IMG/VR virus record: IMGVR_UViG_2534681662_000019
DNA from: a virus
Lineage: Duplodnaviria; Heunggongvirae; Uroviricota; Caudoviricetes
DNA: 5,427 nt
Direction: 5' to 3' (one strand)
Position numbers and translations under genes: made by a program. Positions 331 to 4,510 of this stretch are shown here, piece after piece (positions within the stretch are counted from its first letter, which is position 1; each line of letters starts with the position of its first letter). The notes under the pieces were generated by a model. That model made no database searches, was not told the origin of the DNA, and saw only the letters and a list, made by a program, of their open reading frames with translations.

Positions 331-1865
331 TGTTTTATATTGATAACGACAGCGGCGTAACCGTCATGCCGCCCGTATCCGCCCAGCGTAGTGCTATCGT
401 TCGCTGGTTTTCAGAAGGTGACGGGAATAATGCTATCACATGGCCCGGCATGGACTGGTTTAATATTGTGCAGGCGGAGTTATTAAACACGCTGAAAGAA
501 GCCGGTATTCAACCGGATAAAACAAAATTAAACCAGCTTGCACTGTCCATTAAAGCCATTATGAGCAATAACGCGCTGCTGATAAAAAATAACCTCAGCG
601 AAATTAAAACTGCCGGGGCATCAGCACAGCGTACAGCACGTGAAAATCTGGATATCTGGGATGCCAGCCTGAACAAAAAAGGCCTCGTTCAGCTAACCAG
701 TGCCACTGACAGCCCCAGTGAAACGCTGGCAGCCACCGCAAAAGCGGTGAAAATTGCGATGGATAATGCCAATGCCCGTCTGGCAAAAGAGCGGAACGGA
801 GCAGATATTCCCAATAAACCGCTGTTTATCCAAAACCTCGGTTTGCAGGAAACAGTAAACAAGGCTGGTAACGCCGTTCAGCGTTCCGGCGATAAAATGA
901 CCGGAGAACTGAAAATTGGCACGGTGAATGCGCTGCGAATTTTCAATGATGCCTTCGGTCTTATTTTCCGTCGTTCAGAAGAGTACCTTCATTTCATCCC
1001 TACGGCTGAAGGACAAGGCGAAAACGGTGATATCGGCCCATTAAGGCCATTCGCTATAAATCTGAGAACAGGTGCTATATCTGTCAGCCACGGGGCCAAA
1101 ATTGATGGTGGGCTGGCGCTTGGTACAGATAACGCACTGGGCGGTAATTCCATTACTCTCGGAGATAACGACACTGGTATTAAACAGGGCGGCGACGGTG
1201 TCCTTTTATTCTATTCAAATGGACAACTGGCATTTGGGCTTCAACCCGCATCTGCTGATTTTTATAAGCGGGTTGCATATATTCATCAGGGAATAATTCC
1301 TGATGGAAGTGGCGCATTTGCAGACCAGTTGAATAATGCCACCGCGCCTTTTGTTCAGACGCAGTTTGCCTGGAATCCCACTCCTGGTGGTCATTACGTG
1401 CCGATAGTTAAGGGCTTGTCCATTCGCAATGGACAGGGCTATCCCGGCGCGGTCAGCTTTGGGTATTTACTGACAGAACAGTATGGATTTCCGGTTCCAT
1501 GTATTCATATGCGTGGCGATGGCGGTAATGATGCTTTATGGCAGTTTAACCCGAACGATAAATCCTTTATTTCACCGGGTGCTCTTATTGCGGGTGGCGT
1601 CCATTATAACACCGATGGAAATATATTTGGTGGGTGCTGGGGTTCAAACTTAAATGATTACCTGAATAGTTCTTTTATCAGAAATGTGCGTCTGGGAGGC
1701 AGACGTTCTGACGTATTATATCGCGGAGGACTTTGCGAACCAGGTAATGGTCATGTGACAACAGGATTGCAAATTATTGGTGAGGTTGATGGAGATGACT
1801 GGATGGTGTCACGACCACTACAAAAATACATTTCTGGTAACTGGTATAACGTTGAACAGGCATAG
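330..1865 (+). CDS. S: Tail fibre protein S: constant N-terminal part (Sc, about 330-838) fused in frame to the variable part Sv inside the invertible segment
   Basis: 511-aa ORF with ATG overlapping the upstream stop. It reads through gixL (826-851) as ...FIQNLGLQETVNKAGNAV... It shares a Gly-rich block (ALGGNSITLGDNDTGIKQGGDGVL) and a C-terminal block (GLQIIGEVDGDD...WYNVEQA) with the minus-strand S'v cassette. Followed 15 nt later by a tail-fibre assembly gene. Confidence 0.9.
   Translation: MFYIDNDSGVTVMPPVSAQRSAIVRWFSEGDGNNAITWPGMDWFNIVQAELLNTLKEAGIQPDKTKLNQLALSIKAIMSNNALLIKNNLSEIKTAGASAQRTARENLDIWDASLNKKGLVQLTSATDSPSETLAATAKAVKIAMDNANARLAKERNGADIPNKPLFIQNLGLQETVNKAGNAVQRSGDKMTGELKIGTVNALRIFNDAFGLIFRRSEEYLHFIPTAEGQGENGDIGPLRPFAINLRTGAISVSHGAKIDGGLALGTDNALGGNSITLGDNDTGIKQGGDGVLLFYSNGQLAFGLQPASADFYKRVAYIHQGIIPDGSGAFADQLNNATAPFVQTQFAWNPTPGGHYVPIVKGLSIRNGQGYPGAVSFGYLLTEQYGFPVPCIHMRGDGGNDALWQFNPNDKSFISPGALIAGGVHYNTDGNIFGGCWGSNLNDYLNSSFIRNVRLGGRRSDVLYRGGLCEPGNGHVTTGLQIIGEVDGDDWMVSRPLQKYISGNWYNVEQA
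826..851. other. gixL: gixL recombination site for Gin invertase (TTATCCAAAACC-TC-GGTTTGCAGGAA)
   Basis: 26-bp site with two 12-bp half-sites around a central TC dinucleotide (838-839). It matches the gix/hix half-site pattern as I recall it and is present in inverted orientation at 3837-3862. It lies inside the S coding sequence, as expected for the Sc/Sv junction. Confidence 0.85.
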
Positions 1866-1880
1866 CCATCAGGAGAATAT

Positions 1881-2408
1881 ATGCAACATCTGAAAAATAT
1901 TACCGCCGGAAACCCCAAAACCATTGAGCAGTATCAGCTTACGAAAAAAGCTGGCGTTATCTGGCTATATACAGAAGACGGTAAAAACTGGTATGACGAA
2001 TTAAAAAACTTTCAGGATGATACTTTAAAAATAGCTTATGACCAGAAGGGGATTATTCGTTGTATTGAGAAAGACGTATCAATGCTTAACCCTGACGGGT
2101 TAAGTGTTGTTGAGTTACCGAATATAACAGCCAACCGTCGCGCCGATATCTCGGGAAACTGGAAGTTTCTGGATGGTAAAGTAGTAAAGCGGGAATATAC
2201 AAAACAGGAACTGCAACAGCAGGCAGAGTTACAAAAAGCCGCTTTGCTTTCCGAAGCGGAGTCTGTGATTCAACCGCTGGAACGTGCTGTCAGACTGAAT
2301 ATGGCAACTGATGAGGAACGCACACGACTGGAATCATGGGAACGCTACAGCGTTATGGTCAGCCGTGTGGATACTGCAAAGCCTGAATGGCCACAGAAAC
2401 CAGAATAA
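1881..2408 (+). CDS. U: Tail fibre assembly protein U (chaperone for S)
   Basis: 175-aa ORF with AGGAG (1871-1875) 5 nt upstream of the ATG. Clear paralogue of the minus-strand 177-aa ORF (both start MQHLKNI..GNPKT.EQYQLTK...[12 protein letters not shown] and share ITANRRAD). Position directly after the fibre gene. Confidence 0.9.
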
Positions 2409-2417
2409 CAACAAATT

Positions 2418-2440
2418 AAGGCCCGTACGGGCCTTTTCTT
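2418..2440. terminator. Bidirectional rho-independent terminator between the convergent U and U' genes
   Basis: Hairpin aaGGCCC-gtac-GGGCCtt (2418-2435) followed by TTTTCTT on the + strand and preceded by an A/T-rich run (TTAATTTGTTGTT on the - strand). It sits in the 30-bp gap between the U stop (2406-2408) and the U' stop (2439-2441). Confidence 0.6.
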
Positions 2441-2972
2441 ATTCTGGTGGTTCCGGGAATGTTACAGGAAGAACCGAGGTATCAGTTGTCTCAACCTGTT
2501 GCACGTATCGCATCCAGTTCATCAGTTGCTGTCTGTCTGAATCAGTGATAATCCCCAAAGTAAGCTGTGTTTGCCAGAACTGCGTTTTTTCTCTGGCCTG
2601 CTGTAATAATATTTTTTTCTGGTTTTCCGTCTGTAGGCGCAACTCTTCTTCGGTATATACACGTTTAATGACTGCGCCATCTTTAAACATCCATTTACCT
2701 GAGTCGTCAGCACGCCGGTTGGCGGTAATATCAGGAATCTCAACGACGCTATAACCTTCAGGGTTAAGTGTGGAGGCATCTTTGGTTATGGCAACAATAA
2801 TATTATTTTCGTCGTAAACAATCTTTATGGTGTCTTCCTGAAAGTTATTTACTTCCTCATACCAGTTTTTACCGTCTTCTGTATATAACCAGATAACATC
2901 AAAATTCTTTGTTAGCTGATATTGCTCTTTTGTTTTTGGATTTCCTGACTTAATATTTTTTAAATGCTGCAT
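2439..2972 (-). CDS. U': Tail fibre assembly protein U' (chaperone for the alternative fibre S')
   Basis: 177-aa ORF on the minus strand, paralogous to U. Its ATG (2970-2972) lies 1 nt after the S'v stop codon (TAA, complement of 2976-2978), with AGGTG just upstream on the minus strand. Confidence 0.9.
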
Positions 2973-2975
2973 AAT

Positions 2976-3848
2976 TTACACCTGTGCGACGTTATACCAT
3001 GTGCCATTGATGTATTTTTGTATTGGTCTGAAGATGGCTTCATCATCGCCATCTACTTCACCAATGATTCTTAATCCGGTAATTGCGTGTCCGGCTTTTT
3101 CATAACGACCACCACGCGCCATCAATTGAACAACACGCGTACCCAGGCGAACATCTTTCACATAGCGGGAATCAAAATTCCCCCAGTTGCTGGGTTGTAT
3201 CTGACCGTTAACAGCAAATATTACTGAGTTATCTGTATTTCGCTGACTATAGAAATGCCAGCCAGAATCATCGCCAAGCTCTGCAACAGTTGGCCTTGAC
3301 GAAGCGCCCCATAAATTAAACCCTACGTTCTTCGTGGAGTTGTTGGAGCTGGATAGCGTGAATTTTTTACCATCCCCGGCCTGAATATTTTTAAAAGCAA
3401 TAGCCACTCCATTCTGAAAGCGGAATACACGCTGACTATTAGCATAAACATCCAGAATACCGTCTCCATTCTGTTTAAATCCGGTGTCATTATCACCAAG
3501 AACAATAGAGCTACCACCTAACGCATTCGTCGTACCAACTCCAAGACTGCCATTAATGACGGCATTTACCAGAATATTTAGTGCATCCCATTTCAGCGTC
3601 ATCAGGTCTTTTGTTGTGGTGCTCTGGCGGCTTCTCCATTTGAAATATTCATTGCCGTTGTCGCCTGTTTCAAACCACATGTATGAATCAGTGTCACCAT
3701 CGGCATCATTTTTAAATCCAATCTTCGCCCAGTCAGTATTTCGAATCCAGGCAAGGATTGAGTCATTTTCAAAAGTAAGCCCACCGGACAAGGTATCGCC
3801 ATTTTTTTGCACGGCGTTACCAGCCTTGTTTACCGTTTCCTGCAAACC
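2976..3848 (-). CDS. S': S'v: promoterless, startless variable C-terminal cassette of the alternative tail fibre, expressed only after G inversion as an Sc-S'v fusion
   Basis: Minus-strand open frame homologous to Sv at both ends (QETVNKAGNAVQ... and ...GLRIIGEVDGDD...WYNVAQV). It has no ATG or RBS of its own; the ORF track's M at 3845 is a TTG that is the Leu codon of the shared ...NLGLQETV... junction. The frame is closed one codon outside the crossover by a TAA (complement of 3855-3857) within gixR. Confidence 0.85.
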   Translation of the reverse strand, partial: GLQETVNKAGNAVQKNGDTLSGGLTFENDSILAWIRNTDWAKIGFKNDADGDTDSYMWFETGDNGNEYFKWRSRQSTTTKDLMTLKWDALNILVNAVINGSLGVGTTNALGGSSIVLGDNDTGFKQNGDGILDVYANSQRVFRFQNGVAIAFKNIQAGDGKKFTLSSSNNSTKNVGFNLWGASSRPTVAELGDDSGWHFYSQRNTDNSVIFAVNGQIQPSNWGNFDSRYVKDVRLGTRVVQLMARGGRYEKAGHAITGLRIIGEVDGDDEAIFRPIQKYINGTWYNVAQV

Positions 3849-3870
3849 GAGGTTTTAGATAATGGCTGTT
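3835..3870 (+). promoter_or_regulatory. Candidate gin promoter overlapping gixR (-10-like GATAAT at 3858-3863)
   Basis: GATAAT hexamer inside the outer gixR half-site, about 55 nt upstream of the gin start; the -35 is weak. In the Gin/Hin/Cin family the invertase promoter is reported to overlap the adjacent recombination site. The exact hexamers here are my inference. Confidence 0.3.
3837..3862. other. gixR: gixR recombination site (TTCCTGCAAACC-GA-GGTTTTAGATAA), inverted relative to gixL
   Basis: Its reverse complement is TTATCTAAAACC-TC-GGTTTGCAGGAA, identical to gixL except for one base (C in gixL, T in gixR). Central dinucleotide at 3849-3850. Located between the S'v cassette and gin. 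Confidence 0.85.
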
Positions 3871-3916: not shown

Positions 3917-4510
3917 GTGCTGATTGGCTATGTAAGGGTATCAACAAATGACCAGAATACAGACCTGCAACGAAACGCTCTTGTTTGTGCAGGATGTGAA
4001 CAAATATTTGAAGATAAATTAAGCGGAACAAGGACAGACAGACCTGGATTAAAGCGCGCTTTAAAGCGTCTTCAAAAAGGTGACACACTGGTTGTCTGGA
4101 AACTGGATCGCCTCGGGCGAAGCATGAAACATCTGATTTCTCTCGTCGGAGAACTACGGGAGCGAGGGATTAATTTTCGCAGCCTTACTGACAGTATTGA
4201 TACGTCATCCCCAATGGGGCGTTTTTTCTTCCACGTTATGGGTGCCCTAGCTGAAATGGAACGAGAACTAATCATCGAGCGAACGATGGCAGGACTTGCT
4301 GCCGCCAGAAATAAAGGCCGTATTGGTGGGCGACCACCTAAACTAACCAAAGCGGAATGGGAGCAGGCCGGGCGTTTATTAGCACAAGGAATCCCCCGCA
4401 AGCAGGTTGCATTGATCTACGATGTGGCCCTGTCAACTCTGTATAAAAAACACCCCGCGAAACGAACGCACATAGAAAACGACGATCGAATCAATCAAAT
4501 CGATCGGTAA
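3917..4510 (+). CDS. gin: Site-specific DNA invertase Gin (serine recombinase, resolvase/invertase family)
   Basis: ORF starting at GTG 3917 with GGGAG (3905-3909) upstream. N-terminus MLIGYVRVSTNDQ has the catalytic Ser at position 9. The catalytic domain and C-terminal helix-turn-helix (GGRPPKLTKAEWEQA...) are characteristic of Gin/Pin/Hin/Cin. Located directly beside gixR. Confidence 0.95.
   Translation: MLIGYVRVSTNDQNTDLQRNALVCAGCEQIFEDKLSGTRTDRPGLKRALKRLQKGDTLVVWKLDRLGRSMKHLISLVGELRERGINFRSLTDSIDTSSPMGRFFFHVMGALAEMERELIIERTMAGLAAARNKGRIGGRPPKLTKAEWEQAGRLLAQGIPRKQVALIYDVALSTLYKKHPAKRTHIENDDRINQIDR
3960..4075. promoter_or_regulatory. Candidate Fis-dependent recombinational enhancer (sis) within the 5' part of gin
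   Basis: In Mu the enhancer lies inside the start of the gin coding sequence. Here there are Fis-like 15-mers of the G-N13-C type with A/T-rich cores, for example GAAGATAAATTAAGC (4010-4024) and GCGCTTTAAAGCGTC (4056-4070), plus a weaker one at 3962-3976 whose centre is 48 bp from the first. The Fis motif is degenerate, so this placement is tentative. Confidence 0.25.

Follow-up and report, generated by a model that had tools for sequence, protein, structure and literature searches.

A 55-bp inverted repeat in a Mu-type invertible segment: gix sites and probable coding homology of two tail-fibre cassettes

The window analysed here, a stretch of 5,427 bases, is an IMG/VR provirus fragment with the gene order (gp48 end, S, U, U', S'v, gin, com, mom) found at the right end of phage Mu. 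It represents the late region at the right end of a Mu-like prophage, with an invertible G segment composed of S-U and U'-S'v. The C-terminal end of gp48 (1-330) is followed on the plus strand by the tail-fibre gene S in its expressed orientation (330-1865), an open reading frame of 511 aa in which the constant part, Sc, reaches to 839 and the variable part, Sv, begins at 840. Residues 1-196 of S match Mu S (PDB 5YVQ/9KI1), and Pfam places PF03406 at residues 113-153. Next come U, the tail-fibre assembly chaperone for Sv (1881-2408, plus strand; PF02413 Caudo_TAP, E 7.8e-35), and U', the chaperone for S'v (2439-2972, minus strand; PF02413, E 1.8e-31), which show 71% inverted similarity to each other over 348 nt. 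S'v itself (2976-3848, minus strand; PF21446 Gp34_trimer) is a silent receptor-binding cassette that matches residues 171-305 of Mu S and has no fibre N-terminus of its own; its translated reading frame begins at Q173 of the fused fibre, with PF21446 starting 39 residues in. Sv and S'v are homologous over their whole length (34% identity, E 5e-42, BLASTP).

Adjoining the segment is gin (3917-4510, plus strand), which encodes a serine DNA invertase with a resolvase domain (PF00239, E 7e-50) and a C-terminal helix-turn-helix (PF02796 HTH_7, E 2.4e-17; search of 3917-4507). Its counterpart is annotated as Gin/Hin in Mu, D108 and vB_YpM_3 and occupies the same place in Mu and D108. The left recombination site, gixL, lies inside the fibre gene, the S frame is unbroken across it, and Sc is combined with one of two cassettes, each of which comes with its own Tfa chaperone.

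A repeat search and a register-anchored alignment of the segment ends delimit an inverted repeat of 55 bp (826-880 and 3808-3862) that is 95% complementary, with mismatches at window positions 831 (C/T), 854 (A/G) and 878 (T/G) and at no others. Its outer part is the recombination site. The dyad AAACC-TC-GGTTT is centred on 838-839, which is the crossover dinucleotide TC, and the reverse complement of 829-848, CTGCAAACCGAGGTTTTGGA, agrees with the published gix core, CTGTAAACCGAGGTTTTGGA, at all but one of 20 positions (19/20). This 20-bp core, CTGT AAA CC GA GG TTT TGGA, is the sequence recognised by the Gin catalytic domain (PMC3985619). Following the convention for the related hix sites (PMC3798978), we set the limits of the 26-bp sites at 826-851 for gixL (plus strand, within S) and, by alignment, at 3837-3862 for gixR (minus strand, next to gin). 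The two are inverted, identical at 25 of 26 positions and both centred on TC; the single difference, a T for C in the outer half of gixR at the position paired with 831, creates an in-frame TAA.

Beyond the inner edge of each site the identity continues for another 29 bp, from 852 to 880 on the plus strand at the start of Sv and from 3808 to 3836 on the minus strand at the start of S'v, with 27 of the 29 positions identical. Identity is absent outside 826/3862 in the register-anchored alignment, ending exactly at the outer gix edge, and is merely scattered beyond 880/3808; the extension is therefore one-sided and points into coding DNA. A sequence-only reading of the window had described 49 bp with two mismatches at 832-880, and our alignment returns exactly this figure. 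The same reading had proposed a nucleotide alignment of the two ends and had put the identity past gix at about 23 bp. That it runs past the inner boundary is borne out; its length had been underestimated, and gix had been placed 6 bp too far to the right.

The site of strand exchange can be followed in a natural inversion. The sister isolates Esc30 and Esc31 of E. coli share an element that is 99% identical to the window and lies in opposite orientations in the two; their flanks show no mismatch in 900 positions on either side, and the 3037-bp segment between them is exactly inverted. When the Esc31 segment is reverse-complemented, a single difference from Esc30 remains at each end, at position 6 of the inverted repeat. 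The outer C/T difference (831) thus remained with the flank, while the inner A/G difference (854) travelled with the cassette, so the crossover took place within 832-853 (between repeat positions 6 and 29), that is, in the gix core and not in 855-880. In Esc31 the annotated coding sequence is Sc fused to the A cassette. Inversion with exchange inside gix is thereby documented in a 99%-identical element, which is a different sample from that of the window.

The repeat is coding on both arms, and the peptide common to both fibres after the crossover is GLQETVNKAGNAVQ (GLQE-TVNKAGNAVQ), residues 171-184 of S. Its first four residues come from the inner gix half-site, since the gixL codons read F-I-Q-N-L-G-L-Q-E, and TVNKAGNAV(Q) comes from the extension, whose two mismatches are synonymous (ACA/ACG for Thr and GTT/GTG for Val). 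Immediately after the shared peptide, Sv continues with RSGDKMTGEL and S'v with KNGDTLSGGL, which are diverged yet still homologous. The repeat had been said to impose the shared peptide on both fibres. The gix half-site fixes GLQE alone; the other 10 residues form a conserved protein motif, for which the two cassette types happen to use similar DNA. As the extension reflects coding homology and not a need of recombination, cause and effect had been reversed.

The motif extends further than the repeat. Both cassettes of the window start with N-L-G-L-x-E-T-V-N-x-A-x-N-A-V-Q-x-x-G-D-x-(M/L)-(T/S)-G-x-L, and an alignment of 86 diverse homologues has its highest occupancy at residues 151-195, where N169, G171, L172, T175, V176, A179, A182, V183 and Q184, as well as G187, D188, G192 and L194, are each retained in 68-90% of the sequences. 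A homology search with residues 110-330 showed that the C-type cassette of the window is about 98% identical from around residue 167 onwards across four different kinds of N-terminus, namely Mu Sc, the P2 H type (PF12571), the lambdoid side-fibre type (PF08400) and a P1-like type, all of which have the joint ...LGLQETVNKAGNAVQRSGD... in common. Junctions in 15 fibres with these four kinds of N-terminus place the motif at the boundary between the phage-specific proximal and the exchangeable distal parts. Among the best 150 matches from a search of 50%-identity cluster representatives, the internal end points of the top homology stretch concentrate at residues 171-200 (39 cases) and its start points at 181-195. 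BLAST matches to the window break off in the same region: those of P2-like phages end at 3866, just outside gixR, and for P1 and D6 the end point is 3842, within the inner half-site. In more distant relatives the motif persists with different residues or codons. P1-like and other fibres show substitutions (e.g. NLGLKPTVDKAKNAVQRDGDTMTGEL and ENLGLTDIVSQAGNAVQRSGD), a further relative has LRETINRAAGALQK encoded by ACCATAAAT..., and more distant invertible segments encode the peptide TINRAAGALQK from different DNA, ACCATAAATCGC.... Conservation of the motif among the 86 homologues, together with retention of the peptide where the DNA differs, suggests that the protein, and not the DNA, is under selection.

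A structural role for this peptide would be in line with its position in the fibre. Pfam shows no domain boundary at the shared peptide. An AlphaFold2 model built with the 86-sequence alignment (mean pLDDT 75, about 82 for residues 161-180) predicts helices at 163-169 and 173-180, a coil from 181 to 201 and beta strands starting at 202; confidence is moderate for residues 181-200, where pLDDT drops to about 67-70, and the model is indicative as it treats a monomer of an intertwined trimer. In this model QETVNKAG would close the helical proximal (attachment) part as its final short helix, and NAVQRSGDKMTGELKI (NAVQ..GD..TG.L) would link it to the beta-rich distal part. The suggestion, made from the sequence, that the Sc/Sv joint is under a structural requirement fits with both the conserved motif and this helix-to-beta transition, and the peptide does map to a junction, as far as a monomer model can indicate. 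Solved structures were found for Mu S (5YVQ, 358 residues resolved in chain 5yvq_A, and 9KI1, 108 residues in 9ki1_j) and for the Mu G(-) fibre (8JU3). In a cryo-EM study, gp49 was modelled at its N-terminus only (PMC11915804).

How long the repeat is depends on which cassettes are paired. We gathered arms from 12 annotated phage records, from 80 IMG/VR loci found via the invertase and from 84 found via DNA patterns, which gave 32 distinct arm pairings; 30 of these were usable, with both arms intact, 28 of them fully typed and two with one untyped arm. Types were defined from the first residues of the cassettes: TVN[KR]A[GR]NAVQK[NT]GDTLSGGL for type A (P2 H-like, and also the Sv of Mu), TVNQASGALQKNQNGADIP for type B (the S'v of Mu) and TVN[KR]AGNAVQRSGD[KT]MTG for type C (the Sv of the window). 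Repeats measure 33-42 bp in the 16 A+B pairs, and the six B+C pairs, at 41 bp, fall into the same range when pooled with them. They measure 52-55 bp in the three A+C pairs (the window, vB_YpM_3 and Tongde) and 82-88 bp in the three B+B pairs. A pattern scan of IMG/VR for further A+C segments of Mu type returned no locus with two inverted matches, and additional A+C examples were taken from complete E. coli genomes. Across the 30 usable segments, repeat length depends only on the types of the cassettes that are paired; it would thus be a read-out of this pairing and probably not a property that Gin uses. Moreover, C-type cassettes paired with the dissimilar B type carry the 29-nt block unchanged, and P2 gpH and the H protein of pro147 have a gix-like sequence followed by the block, with no invertase annotated within the fetched flanks. 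The extension therefore belongs to each cassette, and not to the pair or to the recombinase; it is the opening, and best-conserved, stretch of the homology between Sv and S'v.

Comparison with known systems places the window between shorter and much longer repeats. The Mu G segment has the same gene order, and Sc and gin-com-mom are 97% identical to the window at the DNA level, an identity that does not hold inside the G segment. Mu gix differs by one base within 26 bp and shares the crossover dinucleotide and its position in the S frame. The Mu repeat is an exact 34 bp that runs 8 bp past the 26-bp site and then diverges; in Mu, where Sv is of type A and S'v of type B, identity stops after ...ACGGTAAA, whereas the C+A pair of the window shares 21 further bp. 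A paper on SfMu describes these 34-bp repeats as the target of Gin, strand exchange occurring at the central pair of bases (PMC4406740). The Yersinia phages vB_YpM_3 and vB_YpM_23 and the Esc30/Esc31 prophages carry the same A+C segment, are 98.7-99% identical over the window (98.7% for vB_YpM_3) and have the same 55-bp repeat with 2-3 mismatches; they differ from it by point changes, such as the KT or KN variant of the A cassette, and Esc31 has the opposite orientation.

In the C segment of P1 (Cin, cixL/cixR), the repeats likewise continue well past the crossover site and cover coding DNA of both variable parts, over 636 nt at 98% compared with 55 bp here, so the principle is similar and the type, defined by coding repeats of hundreds of bp, is a different one. 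The inner end of the P1 repeat falls between ...GGAAACGGTA and AAC, the point at which the repeat of Mu ends; it is the same joint, ...CAGGAAACGGTA followed by AAC, with A-type sequence beyond it on the arm that was read and the other arm annotated as related to Mu S'v. P1 differs in having cix at a more proximal YLGLRE motif and its invertase on the other side of the segment. Gene H of P2 and that of pro147 have TTATCGAATA(T/C)CTCGGTTT(A/G)CAGGAA, then the block ACGGTAAAC...AACGC(C/G)GTGCA and an A-type cassette, P2 H being 91.5% identical to the S'v region of the window (2662-3866); here, a second arm is absent, the arrangement is fixed, and the N-terminus is of the PF12571 type and not Mu Sc. 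The Hin/hix system of Salmonella shares the Din-family serine invertase, the 26-bp sites, the central 2-bp crossover and the Fis-bound enhancer (PMC3798978). Hin inverts a promoter and not coding cassettes, so no coding homology lengthens the hix repeats.

These observations establish the anatomy of the repeat, the way its length follows the cassette pair, the occurrence of the block in fibre genes that have no annotated invertase nearby, and the crossover in the core. We consider it very probable that the 55-bp repeat is the 26-bp gix site plus the coding homology of two cassettes that share a joint motif. Gin dimers would bind the 26-bp sites (826-851 and 3837-3862) and exchange strands at the central TC; since gix must match at both ends, the codons for (N)LGLQE would be fixed. 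The further 29 bp would be the opening ten codons of the C-type Sv and of the A-type S'v, two homologous receptor-binding cassettes whose joint motif is presumably maintained by selection on the protein and is also the seam for cassette swaps among fibres of the Mu, P2, P1 and lambdoid types. Near-identity of A and C cassettes at the joint would then follow from protein selection and from this role as a seam.

Gene conversion between the segment ends had been put forward as another origin of the identity. In its general form, RecA-dependent conversion or reciprocal exchange between the ends would keep the 29 bp identical regardless of the protein, and several features of the block are what such concerted evolution would produce. 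Three 29-nt haplotypes are identical between A- and C-type cassettes, and at sites 845, 861, 862 and 875 each allele occurs with each cassette type, so that all four pairings are seen, as expected from recombination or recurrent mutation; population-level exchange of the block among cassette types is thus indicated, unless its sites have mutated recurrently. The rare AAC-CGG variant occurs in both arms of vB_YpM_Tongde, which hints at local conversion, and at residues identical between Sv and S'v the number of matching codons is 7 of 10 within the extension versus 41 of 98 elsewhere, a difference that is not significant (Fisher P = 0.085) and leaves room for a small DNA-level contribution, e.g. 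by recent exchange. However, within-genome homogenisation was not detected in six non-redundant A+C segments, where the A-C distances (2, 1, 4, 2, 1 and 4) were not below those of shuffled partners (permutation mean 2.83, P = 0.18), and exchange between co-resident phages accounts for the shared haplotypes equally well. C cassettes with a B partner have the same block and no conversion donor, P2 H has it with no partner arm at all, and the sole natural inversion that could be mapped crossed in the gix core. The perfect identity runs of the window repeat, 22 and 23 bp, also do not exceed the minimal efficient processing segment of homologous recombination in E. coli, which Shen and Huang in 1986 reportedly put at about 23-27 bp. 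Conversion between the ends is thus neither needed nor detected, and we consider concerted evolution improbable. A related possibility is that the 29-bp block and the inner half of gix form a dedicated linker at the DNA level, with near-identity kept as a seam for homologous recombination by which receptor-binding cassettes pass between fibre genes of the Mu, P2, P1 and lambdoid types and between the arms of a single G segment; we regard this as unlikely.

That the additional base pairs are a functional part of the site, required for or tuning Gin binding, synapsis or inversion frequency, appears very improbable. Identity does exceed 26 bp here, as it does in the 34 bp of Mu itself, but Mu and many relatives manage with 33-42 bp, the Gin catalytic domain recognises a 20-bp core, Hin uses 26-bp hix sites, and 34-bp repeats are the reported target of Gin (PMC3985619, PMC3798978, PMC4406740). 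The one-sidedness of the extension, its presence in fibre genes without an annotated invertase nearby and the distant invertible segments that keep the peptide and not the DNA (ACCATAAAT..., encoding TIN) all argue against such a role. The earlier remark that there is more identity here than recombination needs consequently holds, as 34 bp suffice in Mu and 33-42 bp in the A+B and B+C pairs. Chance similarity or mis-assembly across the repeat has a negligible probability, and nothing was found in its favour: 852-880 recurs in the window at 3808-3836 and nowhere else, none of 200 dinucleotide-preserving shuffles contained such a second match, and the binomial P for at least 27 of 29 matches is 1.3e-14. 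An assembly artefact is also rejected by the same arrangement in the independently sequenced vB_YpM_3 and vB_YpM_23 and in complete E. coli chromosomes.

Coding homology next to gix thus remains the preferred explanation, and as such the finding is a modest one. Repeats longer than the crossover site are a long-established phenomenon, with 34 bp in Mu and some 0.6 kb in P1, and the extension is an ordinary by-product of a known system, its intermediate length of 55 bp being due to the A+C pair of cassettes; to this extent it has little importance beyond correct annotation. If instead the block were a DNA-level linker, the length of identity between the arms (34, 55 or about 85 bp) would set how easily cassettes are converted or reshuffled. 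For the present element, the true limits of gixL, gixR and the crossover are now fixed. For Din-type fibre switches in general, the length of the surrounding repeat is no guide to how large the recombination site is, as it reports which cassettes are paired. The motif NLGL-x-ETVN-x-A-x-NAVQ-xx-GD-x-MTG-x-L, in turn, is a landmark for the splices of natural fibre chimeras and helps to delimit receptor-binding cassettes in the annotation of prophages.

Two sister isolates of E. coli, Esc30 and Esc31, carry prophages that differ only in an inverted G segment of 3037 bp, equivalent to positions 826-3862 of the window, and the crossover is confined to the gix core. The pair is a natural snapshot of both states of the G-segment switch.

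Several positions within the gix sites differ from those of Mu or between relatives. The inner half-site of the window carries G in both arms (positions 845 and 3843), whereas Mu carries A (TTTGCAGG versus TTTACAGG); in vB_YpM_3, G is present in the right arm only, and the polymorphism was found with both cassette types. In gixR, the sequence of the outer half is TTATCTAAAACC; its T at position 3857 (the partner of 831) generates an in-frame TAA immediately upstream of the silent cassette. This T is shared with most relatives, and is absent from Mu and PhiR68_1. A separate variant is restricted to gixL, which reads AAAACGTCGG in place of AAAACCTCGG in SfMu, D108, PhiR68_1, and E. coli A21. The change adjoins the crossover dinucleotide and replaces Leu with Val in the product of the tail-fibre gene S (IQNVGL); the authors of the SfMu study suggested that it may lower inversion (PMC4406740).

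More elaborate or altered arrangements were observed at two IMG/VR loci. IMGVR_UViG_2693429557_000008 contains three gix-type arms within a single locus (positions 1, 2978, and 4969), with the arm of the B-type cassette (Mu S'v) on the plus strand, and those of the C-type (the Sv of the window) and A-type (P2 H-like, also Mu Sv) cassettes on the minus strand. A single invertase is adjoined by three cassette-chaperone pairs, the middle arm contains a piece of the P2-type constant part, and the beginning of the contig falls exactly at an arm. Either the locus is a shufflon-like fibre switch with several cassettes, or the layout is an artefact of assembly. At IMGVR_UViG_2541047851_000005, the cassette starts following both arms (positions 3243 and 5946) are heavily altered and G/A-rich (TGNRGENAAQHS... 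and LGKSGDNIALIS...), possibly reflecting low-quality sequence or a degraded segment.

Gix-like sequences also occur inside the fibre gene H of phages P2 (position 2701) and pro147 (position 4255), each on the minus strand and each a near-complete 26-mer of the form TTATCGAATA(T/C)CTCGGTTT(A/G)CAGGAA. Near H, neither phage has an annotated invertase or an annotated second arm. The relatives P88 and vB_YpM_44 carry the same gix-like site together with an invertase and a second cassette. In the H genes of P2 and pro147, the 26-mer appears to be a relic, frozen in place, of what was once an invertible arrangement.
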